A stretch of 64,000 nucleotides of DNA from an uncultured Candidatus Saccharibacteria bacterium (GCA_964456475.1 CAYVZI010000006.1:7074-71073); one strand, 5' to 3'. Positions 2,147 to 62,941 are shown, counted from the stretch's first letter. Numbers and translations: made by a program. Notes: generated from the sequence alone by a model not told the origin.

Positions 2147-5100
2147 TTATTTTTCTTCTTCTGTTTTCTTTCCTTGTTCGTCGCGCTTGTCTACGAATCC
2201 TGTTCCAGCTGGAATGAGGCGTCCGATGATCACGTTTTCCTTAAGTCCACGAAGTGTGTCTACTCCACCGCGAATCGCGTTGGTGATGAGCACGCGGTTT
2301 GTGTTTTGGAATGAAGCAGCTGAGAGCCATGACTTGGTCGTAAGTGCAGTTTCTGAGATACCAAGTACGAGTGATTCTGCTGTTGCTTCTGTGAGACCCT
2401 TGATCTTAAGTGATGCGTTCTCATCGAGAAGCTCAACTGCTTCCACGATTTCGCTTGGAGAAAATCCTGATTCACCAGCATCCTTGATCTTGCGACGTGA
2501 GAACATTTGGCGAATGATGATTTCGATGTGCTTGCGAGAAATTGATGCACCCTGGAGTTCGTACACTTTGTTGATTTCGTGAATGATGTATTCTTCTGCA
2601 CGCTCGCGACCTCCGTATTTGAAGATCTCGGCAATATCTGCAGAACCGTCTGTCATAAGATCACCCTTCTTCACATTGTCGCCCTTGGCAACGATTGCCT
2701 GGCGGTGTGGTGGTACATCGTATGTAGTTTCGTTTGCTTTGCCATCCACCTTTGTATCATGAAGGACGACGATTGAGCGTTCTGTTGCGTTGATGCGGAT
2801 ATCGATGACAGTTCCATCATCATGCGCAACAACTGCAGGATTCTTTGGAAGTCGGCGTTCGAAGATTTCTTCGACACGTGGAAGACCAGCCGTAATGTCG
2901 ACACCTGCGAGACCTCCGGCGTGGAAGGTTCGAAGTGTGAGCTGTGTTCCTGGTTCACCGATCGCTTGTGCAGCAACGATTCCAACCGCTTCTCCAACCT
3001 TGACCAAATCATTGCGTCCCAAGTCGAGACCGTAACAACTCTGACAGATTCCATACACTGTCTTACAAGTGAGTGGTGAACGAACGAAAGCTTCTGTGAT
3101 TCCAGCTTGTTCGAGTTTGAGCGCTTCTTCTTTTGAGATGAGATATCCACGCTTGTGAATCACATTACCATCCTTGTCTTTGAGATCAGCTGCGAGGATG
3201 CGTCCGCGGATTGTCTTACTGATTGGAATTTCAATACCAAGAACATTGTCCTTGTGCATGAGTTTTCCTTCTTTTGTTCCACAATCTTCTTCAGTGATAA
3301 CCACATCTTGTGCAACGTCAACGAGACGGCGAGTGAGGTATCCAGCTTTCGCAGTGTTGAGCGCTGTGTCGGCAAGACCTTTACGTGATCCGTGAGTACA
3401 GATGAAGTATTCAATCGGAGAAAATCCTTCCTTGAACGATGGGATGATTGGGAAATCAATCGTGCGTCCAGATGGGTTCACGATCATACCTTTCATTCCG
3501 GCCATCTGCGTGAGGTTTGAAACCGATCCGCGGGCTTTTGAAGTAATCATGTCGCTCGCTGAACTTCCATCCACCATTGTTTCTGGAATGAGCTTTTCGA
3601 TATCCTTCTTTACACCTTCCCAGATTTCGAGAACCTTGCGGTAACGCTCTTCTTCAGAGAGGAGACCTTCACCGTATTGCTCTTCGACTTCTTTTTGTTT
3701 TGCGCGTCCAGCAGCAACCACTGCAGGCTTACCTTCTGGAACCTTGATGTTGTCGATTCCCCATGAGATACCTGACTTTGTTGAGTACGTAAATCCGAAA
3801 TTCTTGATCTTGTCGAGAAGATCCGGAGTCGCGTCAATGCCGTAGTGCATGATGAATTCATCCACAAGAGTATTCAATCGTGTCTGTCCGATGACTTCGT
3901 TCAAATATGGGAAGTCGTCTGGAAGAATTGAGTTGAAGAGGATTCGTCCTACAGTCGTCTCAAATGGCTTGCCTTCGAACTTTGCATATTTTTCTTTTTC
4001 AGTTCCAAGGATAGTCACCTTTGCGCGAAGTGCGAGCTCATCGAATGAGTACGCAGTGATCGCCTGGTTTGGGCTACCGAACATTTTGCCTTCACCCTTT
4101 TGGTTTGGCATAAGTTTTGTCATCCAGAAACATCCAAGTGCCATATCCATACGTGGAGATGTGATTGGGTCACCGTTCTGAGGTTTCAAGAGGTTCTTGT
4201 TTGAAGCCATGCGTTCCTCAGCTTCCTGTTGAGCAGGTTTTGAAAGTGGAACGTACACAGCCATCTGGTCTCCGTCGAAGTCGGCGTTGAACGCTGGACA
4301 GACGAGTGGGTGAACCTGGATCGCATTTCCTTCGATAAGGATCGGCTGGAAAGCCTGAATACCGAGACGGTGAAGCGTCGGTGCACGGTTGAGGAGCACG
4401 CGCTTGCCTTTGATTTCTTCTTCAAGGATTGCCCACACTTCTGGAATTCCATCTTCAATGAGACGGTTTGCTCCACGAATGTTGTATGCGAGTTCTTGTG
4501 CGATAAGTTTTGAAATCACGAATGGACGGAAGAGTTCGAGTGCCATGTGTTTTGGAAGTCCACACTGAGAAAGTTTGAGTGTAGGACCGACCACGATAAC
4601 AGAACGTCCAGAGTAGTCCACGCGCTTTCCAAGCAAGTTCTGACGGAAGAGACCTTGTTTTGATTTCAAGTTGTCTGAAAGAGATTTGAGTGCACGGCGC
4701 TGTGCCTGGTTCATCGCAACAGAGTCGTTCTGACGAGCGATTGAGTTGTCGATGAGAGCATCCACAGCTTCCTGCAAGATACGCTTTTCGTTACGCAAGA
4801 TCACGTCTGGCGCACCGATTTCCTTGAGCTTGCGGAGACGGTTGTTTCGGTTGATCACGCGACGGTAAAGGTCGTTGATGTCAGATGTCGCATGACGTCC
4901 TCCTTCAAGAGCCACCATTGGGCGAAGTGCCGGCGGGATGACTGGGATGACGGTGAGGAACATCCATTCTGGACGAATGCCTGAAGTGATCATCGAACGA
5001 ATAAGCGATAGGCGCTTTTCGAGCTTGTCCTTTTCAACAGCACTTGCCTTCTCAGATGCAGCTTCTGAAATTTCCTGAAGCTTTTTAAGATCAAGATTTT

Positions 5101-10570: not shown

Positions 10571-11212
10571 CTAACTCTGTTTACTCTTGTTTTCATCAGC
10601 CTTTTTATTAAACCTTTCTATTACATCACGAACAACATCTTCAGAGAACAAAGAACGCATATCCACTATATATCTATAGTCCTCTTTAATATACTCAGTT
10701 CCCTTATAGTTTTCTATATAAACTTCGACTCTCTCTCTTAGTAATTTTTTAATAACGCTCTCTGGCGCCGAAAAGAATCGCTGCTCATCCAAATATTTTT
10801 CTTCTTGAATAAGAGCATCTTCAGATAAAATCGTCGGATCTGTAACCCTTAATTCTATACCTCCAGGAATTCTATAAACTGGGATAACTTCGAAGCGCTC
10901 TACTTTCTTTATATTCAAAGTAAATTTCGGACGTTTGTGTCTTTTTAACATCGAGTAAGTTAGTGTCCAATTATCCCCATCCCATGCTCCATGCTTTTCT
11001 ACAAGATCCTTAAGTATTGGCTCAAGTTTCCAAAAATCCTCTTCCTGAACATAAATGTCTATATCTTGATTCTCTCTTATATATTTTCCATTTATCCCGG
11101 CTACTCCAACACCTCCAAATACCCAGTATTTGATTCCAGCATTAGAGATTGCGGGCAACACGTCTTCAAAAACCGGCCCTAAATGTTCATTGATTTTTTG
11201 TGTAGTTTCCAT
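10571..11212 (-). CDS. Nucleotidyltransferase-fold protein, Lnu(A)/LinA-ANT(2'')-like (NTase_2 family)
   Basis: 213 aa. YWVFGGVGVAGINGKYIRENQDIDIYV matches the Lnu/ANT(2'') hG[GS]...DxD pattern (compare LinA YWLDGGWGVDVL...RDIDI). It is co-directional with the OLD nuclease and 183 bp downstream of it. Confidence 0.6.
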   Translation of the reverse strand: METTQKINEHLGPVFEDVLPAISNAGIKYWVFGGVGVAGINGKYIRENQDIDIYVQEEDFWKLEPILKDLVEKHGAWDGDNWTLTYSMLKRHKRPKFTLNIKKVERFEVIPVYRIPGGIELRVTDPTILSEDALIQEEKYLDEQRFFSAPESVIKKLLRERVEVYIENYKGTEYIKEDYRYIVDMRSLFSEDVVRDVIERFNKKADENKSKQS

Positions 11213-14466: not shown

Positions 14467-15108
14467 CTAAATCTTAGTATACAAAACCCCTTTCCCCGTC
14501 TTGCCCGTTTGTTTAATTTTCCCCTCCTTCTCAAGAATCGAAAGATACCGCGTCGCTGTCGCGTCAGACACATGCAACAGTTTCTCAACGTCATCATTCG
14601 TCACGCTTGTTCGCTTCGCAAACAAACCCATAACTTTATCCAGCTTTTTCCTTTTCCTAAATTGAATTACACTTTGCGCCTTCACCAAAAGTTCCCTCAT
14701 CCCACTGCGCGGAGCAACTTGAACCGACGGAGGCACCGTGCCCGATTCTACTTTTGCAGAATTTGGGGAAGCCTCCGTCGGCTTCTGCAATTCTGGTTTT
14801 ACGGTCTCAGCAATCGACTCAGCCACAGGTGATAACGGCTCATTTCCGCCCACTGGGCCCGATCCCACTTCAGTGGGATTTAGGGTTTGAGCCGTTGTAC
14901 CCGATTCTACTTCTGCAGAATTTAAGGTTGGTTCCGGTACGGCTTCTACAGGAGCTGGAGTTGGTTCGATTGGAGCTTCTACAGGAGCAGGAGTCTCCAC
15001 CACAGGAGTCACAGTCTCGTCAGCAACAACAGGCTCAACTGGAGTCTCAATTGGAACCGTTTCTACAATAGGAGTTACCTCATCCGCCATATGCAAATAG
15101 TATATCAA
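14467..15108 (-). CDS. Pro/Val/Glu-rich low-complexity protein with a C-terminal winged-helix DNA-binding domain. It contains an internal ~50-bp direct duplication and an interrupted family-2 hairpin element.
   Basis: 213 aa. C-terminus VTNDDVEKLLHVSDATATRYLSILEKEGKIKQTGKTGKGVLY (wHTH). N-terminal PVE repeats. Family-2 copy at 14834-14896, read in-frame. Confidence 0.5.
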   Translation of the reverse strand: MIYYLHMADEVTPIVETVPIETPVEPVVADETVTPVVETPAPVEAPIEPTPAPVEAVPEPTLNSAEVESGTTAQTLNPTEVGSGPVGGNEPLSPVAESIAETVKPELQKPTEASPNSAKVESGTVPPSVQVAPRSGMRELLVKAQSVIQFRKRKKLDKVMGLFAKRTSVTNDDVEKLLHVSDATATRYLSILEKEGKIKQTGKTGKGVLYTKI

Positions 15109-27256: not shown

Positions 27257-27372
27257 AGTTTGAATTTTATCATTCAGGATACAAAAGAGCGAGCGACTTT
27301 CGTCGCTCGCTCTTTTGTTGTATTTGTATAACTTTATGAACTTTACAAACTTTATGAACTTTCAACTTGCCG

Positions 27373-32140: not shown

Positions 32141-32292
32141 TCGAGTTCATCAAGTCTATAAAGTTTATAAAGTTAAAAGTCATACGAATGCAATTTCTTC
32201 CCCGCCTGTACACAGGAGGGGGTGGCCGGTACTCCGGACGGGGTGGTTCCTAAACTTTATAAACTTTACGAACTTTATAAACTTTTAACTTT
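32141..32292 (+). repeat. Family-3 A/T-rich AACTTTATAAACTT repeats in inverted orientation (32150-32180 vs 32251-32292) flanking a ~52-nt GC-rich structured core (32199-32250). The whole unit is MITE-like or a small structured RNA.
   Basis: AAGTTTATAAAGTT on the left and (AACTTTATAAACTT)x3 on the right. The core TTCCCCGCCTGTACACAGGAGGGGGTGGCCGGTACTCCGGACGGGGTGGTTCC has nested hairpins CCTGT/ACAGG and CCGG/CCGG. Confidence 0.55.
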
Positions 32293-32295
32293 TTT

Positions 32296-33336
32296 ATGTA
32301 TTCTCATAAAAATAACGACAAACAACTTCTATATTCCCTTATCTTCGTCGGACTTGTTGCCGGGCTTTTTGGACATTATTTTGAAACAGGCAAACTGAAT
32401 TTTGCTACAAACTCAAATCTCAATTCTGCTACGGCATTGCTTGCAACCGAACAGAATCTTACTTCCACAACACCATCTCTTCCGTTGATATCACTCGGCT
32501 TCGTCGGCGACATCATGCTTGATCGTGGAGTAAAGAAATCTGTTATGAACAACATGAGGGGCGACTATTCCAAACTTTTTGCAAACACCGAGTTCCTCAA
32601 AACTCCCGACATCATGTTTGCCAATCTCGAAGGCCCGGTATCAGATCAAGGCAAAGACAAAAGAAACCTCTACTCGTTCCGCATGGACCCAAAATCATTA
32701 ATTGCACTCAAAGATTCCGGCATCGACGTCGTTTCTTTTGCCAACAATCATGTAGGTGATTACGGCCGGCCGGCTTTTGAGGATACTCTCAAGCGACTTC
32801 GCGACACAGGTATTCTTTCTTGTGGTGCTGGAATGAACCGCGCCGAAGCGGAAACACCAGCCATCGTCGTGCAAAACAATTTCAAAGTCGGCTATTTGTG
32901 TTTTTCAGATGTCGGCCCCGCAGATATGGAAGCCACCGATTCAACGAGTGGAATTCTCTTGGCAAGCAATCCCCGCTTTGACGAAATAATCAAAAACGCC
33001 GCAACAAAAGTAGATGCGCTCATCGTATCATTCCATTTTGGAGAAGAATATGAACAGATTCACAATGGACCACAAGAAGCACTCGCAAAAAAAGCCATCA
33101 ATGATGGCGCTGTAATGATTGTCGGACATCATCCGCATGTTCCGCAAGATATTGCCTATTATGACGGCAAGCCAGTACTCTACAGTCTGGGCAATTTCAT
33201 CTTCGATCAGTATTTTTCAAAAGAAACAATGGGCGGATTATTCGTCACTGCAACTCTCATCGGCACCGAGGTCTCCAACGTAACCTCGCATCAAATCGTC
33301 CTTAACAAAAACTTCGTACCTCACTTAGCAAAGTGA
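32296..33336 (+). CDS. CapA/PgsA family poly-gamma-glutamate synthesis metallophosphatase
   Basis: 346 aa. GDIMLDRG, FANLEGP, FANNHVGDYG, GHHPHVPQ, LYSLGNFIFDQ motifs. Confidence 0.8.
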   Translation: MYSHKNNDKQLLYSLIFVGLVAGLFGHYFETGKLNFATNSNLNSATALLATEQNLTSTTPSLPLISLGFVGDIMLDRGVKKSVMNNMRGDYSKLFANTEFLKTPDIMFANLEGPVSDQGKDKRNLYSFRMDPKSLIALKDSGIDVVSFANNHVGDYGRPAFEDTLKRLRDTGILSCGAGMNRAEAETPAIVVQNNFKVGYLCFSDVGPADMEATDSTSGILLASNPRFDEIIKNAATKVDALIVSFHFGEEYEQIHNGPQEALAKKAINDGAVMIVGHHPHVPQDIAYYDGKPVLYSLGNFIFDQYFSKETMGGLFVTATLIGTEVSNVTSHQIVLNKNFVPHLAK

Positions 33337-33430
33337 CTCTTGGAGTATATTCAGCAGAATGACCCTGGGGGTATACTTAGCAAAGTGACTCTTGGAGCAT
33401 ATTCAGCAGAATGACTCTTGGAGCAGCTTG
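33323..33430 (+). repeat. Tandem direct repeat, 2 x ~53 bp, overlapping the capA stop
   Basis: Unit CTTAGCAAAGTGACTCTTGGAGyATATTCAGCAGAATGAC.... Confidence 0.6.
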
Positions 33431-38385: not shown

Positions 38386-38470
38386 TAAAAGTTTATAAAG
38401 TTCTTAAAGTTTATAAAGTGAAATTCAACAATGCGTGCCTGTATAGACTTTATGAACTTTCAACTTTATA
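38386..38470 (+). repeat. Family-3 repeat pair: (AGTTTATAAAGT)x2 then the inverted (ACTTTATRAACTT)x2 around a 25-bp core
   Basis: Read directly, between rnc and the nusB-Nudix gene. Confidence 0.55.
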
Positions 38471-38481
38471 AACTTGATGAA

Positions 38482-39387
38482 CTATTGTGCTCCCGTCAAT
38501 TTCGAAATAGCAGTCGCCATGTATCCAGTCACGTCATCATACATTTTGAGTCCTGCCACTTCTGCCACAGTAAACCAGCGCACATCATCAAGTCCTCCAG
38601 AATCATTTTTAAGAGTTACAGGTACGTATGATGACTCACCAAGAAAGAATATGACATGCTTGCGAATCTTGCCTTTTGTCGGATGATTGGCAACATATTC
38701 ACTCTCACCAATCTTGTCCACAACTTGTATATCAAGATTTGTTTCTTCTTTTATTTCACGAACAGCCGCCTGTTCTGGAGTCTCTCCTTCCTCAACTCCT
38801 CCTTTAGAAAGGGTCCAATAGCCGAAAATATCATGCACAAGCGCAAAGTAGAGTTCATCACCGTTTCGTGCGTAGATAAGCGCTCCAGCTTTTTGCTCAA
38901 TCGGAAGCGTAGTGATGTCCACATCTTCGTTTTTCTTTTGACGCTTTGATTTCTGATCCTTACCTGGCTCGCCAATTTCTTTGTAGACAGCACCAAGCAC
39001 ACCGTTGATGAATCGTGATGAACTATCACCGCCGAATGTCTTTGCGAGTTCGATTGCTTCATTGATAGCAACTTTCGGTGGAACTTCGTTATGGTCACCA
39101 AAAAGGAGCTCGCCGAGACCCATGCGCAAAATATTGCGGTCTACGGCATTGATCTTTTCTACTGGCCATTCCGGTGCAGCCTTGGCAATGATTTGGTCGA
39201 TAATCTCTCGTTTGTCGATGACAAAACCGAGAATTTTCTTCATAAAAGCAATATCCTCATTTCCTGGTGCAAATTCCCCTTCGTTGCGTTCAAGCATAGA
39301 AGCAGTACCCTCTGTTGGATATTGTTTAAAATCCCACTCAAAGAGTGTTTGAAGAACTATTGATCTAGAAAGATGACGATTTGCCAT
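38482..39387 (-). CDS. nusB: NusB-Nudix fusion protein: N-terminal antitermination factor NusB fold fused to a C-terminal Nudix hydrolase
   Basis: 301 aa. N-terminus LQTLFEWDF...VDRNILRMGLGELLF...AINEAIELAKTFGGDSSSRFINGVLGAV (NusB). C-terminal Nudix box GGVEEGETPEQAAVREIKEETNL. Confidence 0.75.
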   Translation of the reverse strand: MANRHLSRSIVLQTLFEWDFKQYPTEGTASMLERNEGEFAPGNEDIAFMKKILGFVIDKREIIDQIIAKAAPEWPVEKINAVDRNILRMGLGELLFGDHNEVPPKVAINEAIELAKTFGGDSSSRFINGVLGAVYKEIGEPGKDQKSKRQKKNEDVDITTLPIEQKAGALIYARNGDELYFALVHDIFGYWTLSKGGVEEGETPEQAAVREIKEETNLDIQVVDKIGESEYVANHPTKGKIRKHVIFFLGESSYVPVTLKNDSGGLDDVRWFTVAEVAGLKMYDDVTGYMATAISKLTGAQ

Positions 39388-60465: not shown

Positions 60466-61509
60466 TCACATTTTTTCTATGGTTTTTTTTAATTTATACC
60501 CATTTCCATGACTAAGCATTCCTTTATATGAAGCTAGCGATTCAGGTTTCCGATTTCTCGCCAAATTTTTCAACATTCTCCGTTTCGTTGCAGTTCGTAA
60601 AACTCGATGTTTTGAAAAATGAATCCAACCAAGAAAATCCACGCCTGATGCGAGGGTTTTGATGAATACCTTGTCTGGATGGAGAGAAAGTTTAAGCTTT
60701 GTTTCCAAAAATTCTGCAATTTTCGGTAGCAATTCTTCAATATATTTTTTGTTTTCGCTCAGAATCACAAAATCATCTGCATAACGAATGTAGTATTTGC
60801 ATTTCAGTTCTCGCTTCATGAATTGATCAAATTCATTCATATATACATTTACCAGAAGCTGGCTCGTCAAATTTCCGAGTGGAAGTCCAACACATTGCTT
60901 GCCTTTGGTTGAAAAACTATCAACTACTTGTCCGAATAACCACAAAATATCCGCGTCTTCAATATGTTTTGCTAGAATTTCTTTCAAAGCAGGATGGTCG
61001 ATATTGGCAAAAAATTTCCGTATATCACATTTCAATACCCAGCATGTACGAGTATTATTTTTTGAAACAATCCTGCCAAAATCTCGAAACCGATTGAGAG
61101 CCTTGTGCTGTCCTTTACACTTCCTGCAAGAAAATGAACTAACATCAAATTTGTAATCAAAATAGGGATACAACACTCTATGAATTGCGTGATGCACAAG
61201 TCTGTCTCTCACACTCGCCTTATGAATGTCTCTCGGTTTTGGGTCATTAATGCGAAATGCGGTATATCCTTGATGCACGTACGTTTTATTTTTTAACTCA
61301 CAAGAAAGGGTCATTAAATTATCAGACAGTTGCATCGTAAATTCACCCACATCCTTGCGTTTCTTTTTTCCACACAAAAACTCTCGCCAAGAAACGAGCA
61401 GATTTTCAAAAGATGCTATACTGGCAAAATCATGGCGCAAACTTACTCTCTCTCTCTCTCTCTCTCGAGAATGCAAGTGTAGTCCTGCGAGCCAAGGAAG
61501 CATTCGCAT
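60466..61509 (-). CDS. Diversity-generating retroelement reverse transcriptase. Start uncertain: the ORF is open to 61617; Met at 61509/61503.
   Basis: RT domain 1 YVHQGYTAFRINDPKPRDIHKASVRDRLVHHAI. YADD catalytic box (YYIRYADDFVIL). Motif 4 LGNLTSQ (DGR-type [ILV]GxxxSQ rather than QGxxxSP). No maturase or endonuclease domain. Confidence 0.85.
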   Translation of the reverse strand: MRMLPWLAGLHLHSRERERERVSLRHDFASIASFENLLVSWREFLCGKKKRKDVGEFTMQLSDNLMTLSCELKNKTYVHQGYTAFRINDPKPRDIHKASVRDRLVHHAIHRVLYPYFDYKFDVSSFSCRKCKGQHKALNRFRDFGRIVSKNNTRTCWVLKCDIRKFFANIDHPALKEILAKHIEDADILWLFGQVVDSFSTKGKQCVGLPLGNLTSQLLVNVYMNEFDQFMKRELKCKYYIRYADDFVILSENKKYIEELLPKIAEFLETKLKLSLHPDKVFIKTLASGVDFLGWIHFSKHRVLRTATKRRMLKNLARNRKPESLASYKGMLSHGNGYKLKKTIEKM

Positions 61510-61841
61510 TGTGGACAAACAATGTCGTTCCTCATATGCCTCGTACTTCAAGATACACGACCGGAGCGAGAATCGAAACGCATTTTTTAGATTTGCTCGA
61601 AGCCATATATCAAGCATATTACGCTCCGCTCGAAAGTAAAAGTCCGTTCATTGTGACCGCGATCAACAAAAATGACCTTGTAAAATATTTTCTGCAAATC
61701 GCGTGGGAAAATAAGCTCATTAAAGATAAGCCATATATTGAAATTTCAGAAAAAATCCAAGAAGTAGGTAGAATCCTCGGCGGTTGGAAAAATAAGGTAA
61801 ATGAAAAAATCACTCACTCAAAACAAAGCATGACCCGCTAA
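61413..61841 (+). CDS. avd: DGR accessory variability determinant (Avd), four-helix-bundle protein, divergent from the RT
   Basis: C-terminus EISEKIQEVGRILGGWKNKVNEK parallels Bordetella bAvd (…IAEVGRILGSWIARVNRK). N-terminal helices also similar. Followed by terminator CAAAGCATGACCCGC-TAA-GCGGGTCATGCTTTG (61822-61858). Confidence 0.7.
   Translation: MLYWQNHGANLLSLSLSLENASVVLRAKEAFALWTNNVVPHMPRTSRYTTGARIETHFLDLLEAIYQAYYAPLESKSPFIVTAINKNDLVKYFLQIAWENKLIKDKPYIEISEKIQEVGRILGGWKNKVNEKITHSKQSMTR
61444..61466. repeat. (CT)10-11 dinucleotide microsatellite at the divergent avd/RT 5' overlap
   Basis: ACTCTCTCTCTCTCTCTCTCTCG. Encodes LSLSLSL in the avd frame and RERERER in the RT frame. Confidence 0.9.
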
Positions 61842-61873
61842 CGCGGGTCATGCTTTGAACATATCTTCAGTTT

Positions 61874-61978
61874 CGAAAGAGAGGAACAGATTGCCCTTAT
61901 TCCACGTATTGTCGTCGAGCGAGTTCGCATTGAAGTTCCACTCGTCGTCGTTCCAGTTCAGGTTCACGGCGACCACTC
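61874..61978 (-). other. DGR template repeat (TR)
   Basis: 105 bp. Differs from the variable repeat at 19 positions, all at TR adenines in the sense strand. Rich in AAC codons when read as protein (NLNWNDDEWNFNANSLDDNTWNKGN). Confidence 0.85.
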
Positions 61979-62269: not shown

Positions 62270-62941
62270 CTACTTTTTAGTAGCGAAAGAGAGGAACAGA
62301 TCGCCCTTACACCACGTAAGGCCGCCGAGCGAGAACGCATAGAAGTACCACTCGCCGCCGCCCCAGCCCAGGCCCACGGCGACCACTCGGCCATCTGGAA
62401 GTTCTACGTGCATGACATACCATTCTTTTTTATTCAGTTTGTACCCACCCAAAAATTGTTCGGCGAGTTCTGGTTGAAAAATCAGAAGATACTTTAGACA
62501 ACAATATGTTTCAAAATCCATATTGCCTGGATTATCTGTAGCAGTCTGAATTTCAGAATCCTTCATGCTTTTTGGCAAACGATATTCGTTCGGCCTGCCA
62601 AGTTCACGAATAGCGATAAATTTTTTCAGATTTGGTATCACGCACAATTCTCTGTAATTATCACCGAAATAAAGTCTTTTGTCCCCAGTTTCGGCTCTAT
62701 GTTTAAATACATCTCCAAACACAAATCCATTTACCAATTGATAGGTGAGCTTACACCCGTTGTTAATCCATTTGATAAACTCAGACAAAAAATTTTCTTT
62801 GTCCGGCATATCAATAGCATCCTGAATTTTTTGACCGTCAATTTCCGAAATTTTCTTGCTCTTTTCGGTGAGCATAGTTACAAAAAGGTTACTAATCATC
62901 ATTAGCAACTGTCCGATTTGACCTAATGTTGTTGGCTTCAC
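62270..62941 (-). CDS. DGR target (variable) protein with C-terminal variable repeat
   Basis: 223 aa. VR 62284-62388 encodes RVVAVGLGWGGGEWYFYAFSLGGLTWCKGDLFLSF. This is the Gly/Tyr/Trp-rich pattern commonly reported for DGR target C-type-lectin-fold VRs. Confidence 0.8.
   Translation of the reverse strand: MKPTTLGQIGQLLMMISNLFVTMLTEKSKKISEIDGQKIQDAIDMPDKENFLSEFIKWINNGCKLTYQLVNGFVFGDVFKHRAETGDKRLYFGDNYRELCVIPNLKKFIAIRELGRPNEYRLPKSMKDSEIQTATDNPGNMDFETYCCLKYLLIFQPELAEQFLGGYKLNKKEWYVMHVELPDGRVVAVGLGWGGGEWYFYAFSLGGLTWCKGDLFLSFATKK
62284..62388 (-). other. DGR variable repeat (VR) at the 3' end of the target gene
   Basis: Matches the template repeat 86/105. Every mismatch is at a TR adenine. A hairpin CTACTAAAAAGTAG (plus 62270-62283) lies directly 3' of it. 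Confidence 0.85.

Follow-up and report, generated by a model that had tools for sequence, protein, structure and literature searches.

The analysis of a stretch of 64,000 nucleotides (nt) from an uncultured Candidatus Saccharibacteria bacterium (GCA_964456475.1 CAYVZI010000006.1:7074-71073), hereinafter referred to as the window, revealed a complete diversity-generating retroelement (DGR) in which two divergent genes, avd on the plus strand and the gene encoding the reverse transcriptase (RT) on the minus strand, meet head-to-head at a perfect CT dinucleotide tract. We suggest that this tract probably represents a slipped-strand translational ON/OFF switch acting on avd and, hence, on mutagenic retrohoming. 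The idea of such a switch on the DGR had been advanced in a previous sequence-only reading of the same DNA, and it gains strong comparative support, all of it in silico, from three findings: 141 of 148 related loci have a repeat at this junction, tract lengths differ between otherwise identical contigs, and the frame logic is consistent with a switch at the 5' coding end of avd.

The element is recognized as a complete DGR because its template repeat (TR) and variable repeat (VR), which form a pair of 113 nt, differ mainly at TR adenines (21 of the 22 mismatches), and because RVT_1 and bAvd domains are both present. The RT matches RVT_1 (E = 1.4e-22), carries the DGR-type [I/L]GxxxSQ motif in the form LGNLTSQ, and has 7988 homologues in the database at E ≤ 1e-60, while Avd matches PF22296 bAvd (E = 4e-13; residues 29-129, profile positions 8-107) and its conserved body begins at 61467 (residue 19, E-N-A-S-V-V...). 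No Pfam match was obtained for the 223-amino acid (aa) product of the target gene. The features of the element, including its open reading frames (ORFs), are the following (positions are those of the window):

61446..61466, plus strand: the (CT)10C tract, which is (GA)10G when read on the RT strand and separates the avd start codons from the conserved Avd body.
61413..61841, plus strand: the avd ORF, 142 aa, with the PF22296 bAvd match and a frame open through the tract.
61432..61482, plus strand: out-of-frame ORF from the clade-conserved avd ATG (61432-61434), which is the antisense of RT codon 3 (CAT).
60466..61440, minus strand: the DGR RT from its likeliest start, TTG 61440, 5 nt past the tract; 324 aa.
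60466..61617, minus strand: the outermost ORF of the DGR RT, from ATG 61617; 383 aa, with the RVT_1 match.
61824..61857, minus strand: hairpin with a 15-bp GC-rich stem followed by a T-rich tail, located directly 3' of the TR, where it overlaps the stop codon of avd.
61866..61978, minus strand: the TR, 113 nt, which pairs with the VR.
62276..62388, minus strand: the VR, at the 3' end (C-terminal coding end) of the target gene.
62270..62941, minus strand: the DGR target gene, 223 aa, with the VR at its C-terminus.

The order of the element is therefore target/VR, TR, inverted avd, and RT, with avd on the strand opposite to TR and RT. A divergent avd had been regarded as unusual; this is not the case, since gene order and orientation are exactly those of architecture B3, TR-(avd)-RT, to which its published description (PMC5758913) assigns 90% of the DGRs of the Candidate Phyla Radiation (CPR). 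The hairpin is likely a terminator placed where TR and avd converge, parting the TR transcript from the RT. As it directly follows the TR, the latter is probably a short transcription unit separate from the RT, which in turn would need its own promoter between 61824 and 61440. The existing annotations of the locus in the window strain disagree with each other: the NCBI one (P0001) reports an RT of 282 aa and the Logan one an RT of 383 aa, without avd. Both the disagreement on the RT start (about 100 residues) and the missing avd are probably due to the head-to-head overlap of the two ORFs across the repeat.

The tract itself is real and 100% pure over 21 nt, even though its start had been placed at 61444, 2 nt away from its actual position. 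It is the sole long dinucleotide repeat of the window: a 12-nt CT pattern occurs at a single site in the 64 kb (0.29 matches expected from shuffling, with none of 100 shuffles reaching 6), the only other dinucleotide run of at least 10 nt is a (CT)5 at 10729-10738, whose length is probably insufficient for slippage, and the window has no run of G or C reaching 7 nt. With 10.5 perfect CT units, the tract is above the slippage threshold and lies 12-31 nt 3' of two avd ATGs. As predicted from the sequence, the avd ORF reads it as LSLSLSL on the plus strand and the RT ORF as RERERER on the minus strand. The head-to-head overlap of the two ORFs also exists; its predicted size of about 100 bp, on the other hand, depends on the starts chosen, since the overlap measures 205 nt from the outermost Met codons and 9-28 nt from the starts judged most likely.

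Editing the length of the tract in silico shifts avd between open and truncated reading frames. At (CT)10, the 142-aa Avd is read from the distal ATG 61413, which is in frame, and a 16-aa peptide (MAQTYSLSLSLSRMQV) is obtained from the out-of-frame ATG 61432. The simulated (CT)9 yields 135 aa from ATG 61432, which is in frame at either (CT)9 or (CT)12; at (CT)8 or (CT)11, both ATGs are closed, with at most 69 aa from either. Hence, the expectation that the gain or loss of one CT unit would frameshift avd needs to be qualified: given two ATGs in different frames, two out of three tract-length classes leave avd open. The distal ATG 61413 is conserved in the subclade of the window (L002 and L183-186). 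In the sister locus L002, the tract is 13 nt long and the proximal ATG is used; L183-186 have tracts of 21 nt, as in the window.

The situation of the RT is different. The tract had also been proposed to frameshift this gene, which is improbable in the window, since the RT most likely starts at TTG 61440, beyond the tract. Indeed, in all 160 relatives analyzed, the alignment of the RT sets in at residues 1-8 of the protein predicted from TTG 61440, and none of these 160 gives homology support to the stretch upstream of it, up to ATG 61617. In L183, an ATG lies one codon upstream of the equivalent of TTG 61440, directly after the L183 tract.

The comparison with orthologous DGRs, which the sequence-only reading had proposed as a check, was carried out on 160 related loci from species-representative genomes and metagenomes, 148 of which had enough upstream sequence. 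Their RTs are 60-77% identical to that of the window and nearly all of them are annotated as Patescibacteria/CPR; apart from an identical contig, no RT more than 77% identical to the window one was found in the genome, metagenome and viral scans. In all 148 loci, avd is divergent and immediately upstream of the RT. The homology of Avd always begins at window residues 19-28, that is, from the first codon past the tract; no protein conservation was found in relatives upstream of the starts of the Avd or RT bodies, and the gap between the two conserved bodies is 16-76 nt in most loci. A simple repeat occupies this junction in the 141 loci mentioned above, always abutting the conserved Avd N-terminus. 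On the RT strand, 71 of these repeats are (GA)n of 9-37 nt, 69 are poly-G of 6-12 nt (mode 9-10), and one is (GT)13; in all the (GA)n and poly-G loci, the purines are on the sense strand of the RT. Outside the junctions, about 13 comparable repeats were counted in 736 kb (first 81 loci), several of them being a junction at a contig end. The position and conservation of the tract, as well as its hypermutability and frame relations described below, are direct observations.

One might argue that the repeat has no function at all, being a neutral microsatellite that expanded in a weakly constrained junction, and the share of in-frame loci, close to a random one third, would be in agreement with this. 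However, we consider this very improbable: neutral microsatellites decay and do not retain positional conservation over such distances, whereas here the repeat keeps its position in 141 of 148 loci, despite an RT identity to the window of only 60-77%, in the form of three different motifs of high purity and with an enrichment of orders of magnitude over the rest of the loci.

Variation in tract length was analyzed through look-ups of exact RT proteins whose ORFs begin past the tract, on contigs from different samples; the P0002 look-ups are uninformative on length, since the called RT ORF includes the tract and forces equal lengths. Judging from the sequences compared, the junction tract is hypermutable in the relatives of the window. 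Nine contigs from nine assemblies, with an identical RT and 0 mismatches over 1338 nt of flanks, have tracts of 19, 19, 21, 21, 25, 25, 25, 27, and 27 nt. A poly-G family of eight contigs shows G11 in six and G12 in two of them (seven contigs without mismatches in the flanks and one with 2 mismatches in about 1424 nt), and the four contigs of a (GT)n family have tracts of 25, 25, 21, and 19 nt. Further near-identical pairs or sets also differ (12 vs 14, 25 vs 19, 35/27/31, and G9 vs G11). The short (GA)4G tract of another family has the same length in six out of six contigs, which fits the usual length threshold for slippage.

As for its position, the tract lies inside the avd reading frame. 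Related loci lack a conserved avd start codon after the tract. In nearly all loci, an ATG is found within 60 nt upstream of the tract, mostly at 10-22 nt, in a frame open into it. In (GA)n loci, this ATG lies opposite RT codon 3 on the other strand; the RT codon antisense to the avd ATG is CAT in 111 loci and CAC in 2, while His elsewhere in these RTs is encoded by CAT and CAC in a 1274:703 ratio; this excess of CAT points to selection for an ATG on the avd strand. The relatives devoid of the repeat are also informative. In six out of seven of them, an ATG located 6-30 nt before the conserved N-terminus shares the frame of Avd, and a Ser/Leu/Pro-rich peptide is encoded over the decayed tract (e.g., MTSPISGLSNTSIL and MKPLPSPLNNSSIL); in L163, an IMG/VR viral contig whose RT shares 49% identity, the two genes have back-to-back starts (CAT|ATG, around position 3000) and no repeat. 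The repeat is thus inserted between the start codon of Avd and its conserved body. In the repeat-bearing loci, Avd is in frame with the upstream ATG in 46-48 out of 140, approximately one third. The in-frame products are normal-looking Avd proteins with an (LS)n or PPP N-terminal tail, and the out-of-frame ones are peptides of 9-50 aa.

The distribution of the frames is not uniform. The gap between the RT and Avd bodies, taken modulo 3, gives 0:1:2 = 38:74:36 in the 148 loci (p about 0.001 after dereplication), with a bias of equal kind in the (GA)n and poly-G classes. In the poly-G loci, in-frame tracts are mostly 8-9 nt long, +1 states 9-10 nt, and +2 states 10-11 nt, so that the bias of this class fits a single-step expansion from ON lengths of 8-9. 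The bias of the (GA)n class is accounted for only in part, the sole explanation offered being that the RT frame stays open in the commonest state. The two classes also differ in their RT starts: the RT has its own ATG past the tract in 58 of the 69 poly-G loci, and a canonical start past the tract is found in only 18 of the 71 (GA)n loci, where the RT frame is open through the tract in two out of three states. A non-AUG start at RT codon 4 of the (GA)n loci is not supported, ATT or ATC being present in fewer than half of the loci inspected by eye.

A different interpretation of these frames is that out-of-frame alleles are leaky, that is, that slippage of the RNA polymerase or ribosomal frameshifting yields some Avd and that the repeat sets its low level. 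About two thirds of the consensus sequences are indeed out of frame, and the in-frame contigs of the three polymorphic families described above are 0 of 9, 0 of 8, and 3 of 4. Moreover, diverged copies (76-92% identity) were seen in every non-viral locus with a located TR/VR pair (120 of 148). One extra nucleotide is the state most often found in both repeat classes, and a +1 or -2 shift might correct it where C-runs or CU repeats allow perfect re-pairing. However, slippage at the RNA level is conjectural, the divergence of the VRs could stem from past ON phases, and the loss of the repeat goes together with in-frame fixation, suggesting that the frame matters. In addition, dinucleotide repeats are not known as classical sites of transcriptional slippage. 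Leaky alleles thus appear to us quite unlikely as the main explanation.

A number of observations weigh against a translational switch on avd, or are not entirely accounted for by it. An in-frame share of one third is equally expected from a non-coding tract, and the frame bias is only partly explained by simple ON/OFF switching. In the (GA)n loci, the RT may be co-switched too or, alternatively, the start codons may have been misjudged. The strict purine polarity hints at an additional, strand-specific constraint beyond mutability. In the window itself, neither of the two avd ATGs is preceded by a recognizable Shine-Dalgarno sequence, and no variation in tract length was found in the window strain, where the single other contig (Logan SRR12712864, retrieved by an exact look-up of the neighboring MurD protein) is identical over 7570 nt.

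The repeat, lying in a very short divergent control region, might instead tune transcription, either through its length, which would set the geometry of a promoter (e.g., the -35/-10 spacing), or by forming non-B DNA (homopurine/homopyrimidine H-DNA), and might thereby modulate the RT and/or avd promoters. The terminator after the TR, which leaves the RT in need of its own promoter between 61824 and 61440, is in agreement with this possibility, as is the finding that all the (GA)n and poly-G loci have their purines on the sense strand of the RT. By inspection, moreover, the hexamers TTGCAT and TAAGGT are exactly 17 nt apart in L002, the closest relative, its 13-nt tract included, and 25 nt apart in the window, and in about 70% of the loci the tract is followed on the RT strand by T, often by TA. 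On the other side, nothing resembling a sigma-70 promoter emerged at the junction from a consensus scan; upstream of the tract there is simply the complementary strand of conserved Avd codons, devoid of a conserved -35 element; tract lengths of 9-37 nt go far beyond the variation that a promoter spacer would allow; the homopurine rule does not hold in the (GT)n families; and the fixation in frame of the loci without the repeat is not predicted by a purely transcriptional role. The specific model of the tract as a promoter spacer was therefore discarded, the sigma-70 scan being empty and the position matrices showing only antisense Avd codons upstream of the tract and a weak T/TA preference downstream. 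Overall, we regard an effect on transcription as unlikely. It should be mentioned that in L163, as well as in L039 and L124, the avd and RT starts directly abut (CATATG); having no intergenic DNA, these loci must harbor both promoters inside the partner gene.

It is also conceivable that the repeat is a structural element of RNA or DNA, with the purine tract upstream of the RT pairing, for instance, with a pyrimidine-rich segment 3' of the TR within a long TR-RT transcript, and with a length variation that would be a harmless side effect. Such a segment exists as a conserved pyrimidine-rich post-TR motif, TTTCTTTTCCGC in (GA)n loci and TTTCATTTCTCTCC in poly-G loci, and the strict strand polarity of the tract fits the idea. 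In the Bordetella DGR, processive synthesis of cDNA requires a non-coding segment that lies downstream of the TR and is bound by Avd (PMC6182149), and the post-TR pyrimidine motif may be the counterpart of this Avd-binding spacer RNA. Pairing with the tract is nevertheless poorly matched by the predicted duplexes: (GA)6 gives -10.2 kcal/mol with the post-TR regions of the poly-G loci and -9.3 with those of its own class, and G12 pairs no better than with shuffled sequence, so that the candidate pairing, devoid of a class-specific match, was rejected. Furthermore, in the window a terminator parts the TR from the tract; the perfect purity of the repeats and tracts of up to 37 nt are unlike selection for a fixed complement; and no Rfam family matches the region, the search for known RNA families returning only sub-threshold hits (RAGATH-11, 26.7 bits against a gathering score of 79.4). 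A structural role of this kind is thus, in our opinion, highly improbable. The motif lies 0-30 nt past the TR end (about 4593-4620 in L004 and 1331-1356 in L005) and reads ...CGAAAGT..TTTCTTTTCCGC in (GA)n loci and ...CGCAACTCTTTTCATTTCTCTCC in poly-G loci; its reverse complement resembles a ribosome-binding site followed by an ATG (GGAGAGAAATG).

Returning to the slipped-strand switch on avd, the mechanism that we envisage is the following. The tract would act as a contingency repeat in the 5' coding end of avd, whose product is the accessory protein needed by the DGR RT. Translation would start from an ATG located a few codons before the tract, and the ribosome would read the latter as (Leu-Ser)n before entering the conserved four-helix body of the protein. 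Replication slippage, by adding or removing 2-nt CT units, would shift this body in and out of frame, and cells would gain or lose Avd at random and in a reversible manner, together with the ability to make mutagenized cDNA and to rewrite the target gene. In the window, the switch would be open via ATG 61413 at (CT)10, open via ATG 61432 at (CT)9 or (CT)12, and closed at (CT)8 or (CT)11. Which avd ATG is used, the absence of Avd from out-of-frame alleles, and the resulting silencing of retrohoming are points that we infer. As regards the last one, in the Bordetella DGR the synthesis of cDNA needs Avd, the RT, and the DGR RNA, and these three suffice for it (PMC6182149); for this reason, the loss of Avd should silence mutagenic retrohoming.

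If extended to the whole clade, this scenario implies that the DGRs of CPR/Patescibacteria (at least 141 of the 148 loci, in a family of about 8000 RTs) carry a stochastic avd switch making hypermutation phase-variable, with a mutator that would be silent in most cells and on in a small and changing subpopulation. The (GA)n tract may gate the RT as well, giving three states (both on, RT only, and both off). We lean, although only slightly, toward this clade-wide view.

Some practical consequences can be envisaged. The avd and RT starts are systematically mis-annotated in these elements, and contigs often break at the tract; DGR surveys scoring an "intact avd" will class two thirds of these elements as defective, wrongly; and the tract length in metagenomes could directly report the fraction of cells with an active DGR. 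Concerning the contigs, 13 of them end at or near the RT start and a few of these (L037, L043, L062, L105, and L180) begin in or at the tract, so that the junction seems to be a frequent break point of assemblies. L062 and L104, the latter also among the contigs starting at or in the repeat, have implausibly long G runs (more than 20 nt), and some of the poly-G lengths may be sequencing artefacts.

Two further observations concern the surroundings of these elements. In L169-L173, a 440-aa serine recombinase (Resolvase/Recombinase/Zn_ribbon_recom) is encoded about 800 nt downstream of the RT, and the DGR of this family may ride on a mobile element or prophage. The window also harbors other repeats: tandem arrays of a 9-nt unit, AAAGTTTAT or its reverse complement TAAACTTTA, are scattered over 11 kb. 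The tandem repeats listed are:

27330-27362, 32144-32174, 32251-32285, 38388-38419, and 38442-38483: arrays of the 9-nt unit.
33327-33423: 26-nt unit, 3.7 copies.
14927-14994: 33-nt unit, 2.1 copies.

The advantage that such a switch might confer deserves a comment. Little is known of how DGRs are controlled, and uncontrolled retrohoming is risky for the host. The small-genome CPR bacteria are thought to possess few regulators; a repeat switch on Avd, if true, would represent a simple, heritable, and reversible form of bet-hedging control suiting organisms of this kind. Phase variation by repeats and DGRs are each well known, and the link between them is new to the literature searched: we found no report connecting DGRs with repeat-mediated phase variation in a search that did not cover the main survey of CPR DGRs (Paul et al. 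2017), and neither the architecture section of the B3 paper (PMC5758913) nor a term search of that paper gave any mention of a junction repeat, of overlapping start codons, or of phase variation.

Different known systems resemble the one proposed here. In hifA/hifB of Haemophilus influenzae, a (TA)n repeat forms the -35/-10 spacer of a divergent promoter and acts on transcription. As in the DGR, the repeat lies between two divergent genes and one tract could affect both; unlike hifA/hifB, the evidence collected in this work points to an effect on the coding frame of avd, and no conserved promoter hexamers flank the tract. In Helicobacter pylori, oipA/hopH, sabA, sabB, babB, and hopZ carry CT repeats in the 5' region coding for the signal peptide; these outer membrane protein genes share with avd the CT unit, its location a few codons past the start, the Leu-Ser reading, and the slipped-strand switching of the frame. 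They encode, however, surface proteins of a pathogen, whereas here the switched gene would encode an accessory factor that works inside the cell and serves a retroelement of uncultured Patescibacteria; the tract, moreover, is antisense to a head-to-head partner gene and has a motif that is interchangeable across the clade ((GA)n, poly-G, or (GT)n). Lastly, poly-G/poly-C contingency loci are known in Campylobacter and Neisseria, as are the regulons of phase-variable methyltransferases ("phasevarions"). Similarly to the poly-G junctions, these contingency loci have G/C tracts of 8-12 nt, 5' in the coding region and polymorphic between otherwise identical genomes, and in phasevarions, too, a single switch controls a downstream system with multiple outcomes. 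In those systems, it is a surface structure or a methylase that is switched, whereas in the DGRs it would be a generator of diversity and, if this idea is correct, two layers of programmed variation would be superimposed, with phase variation gating mutagenic retrohoming.

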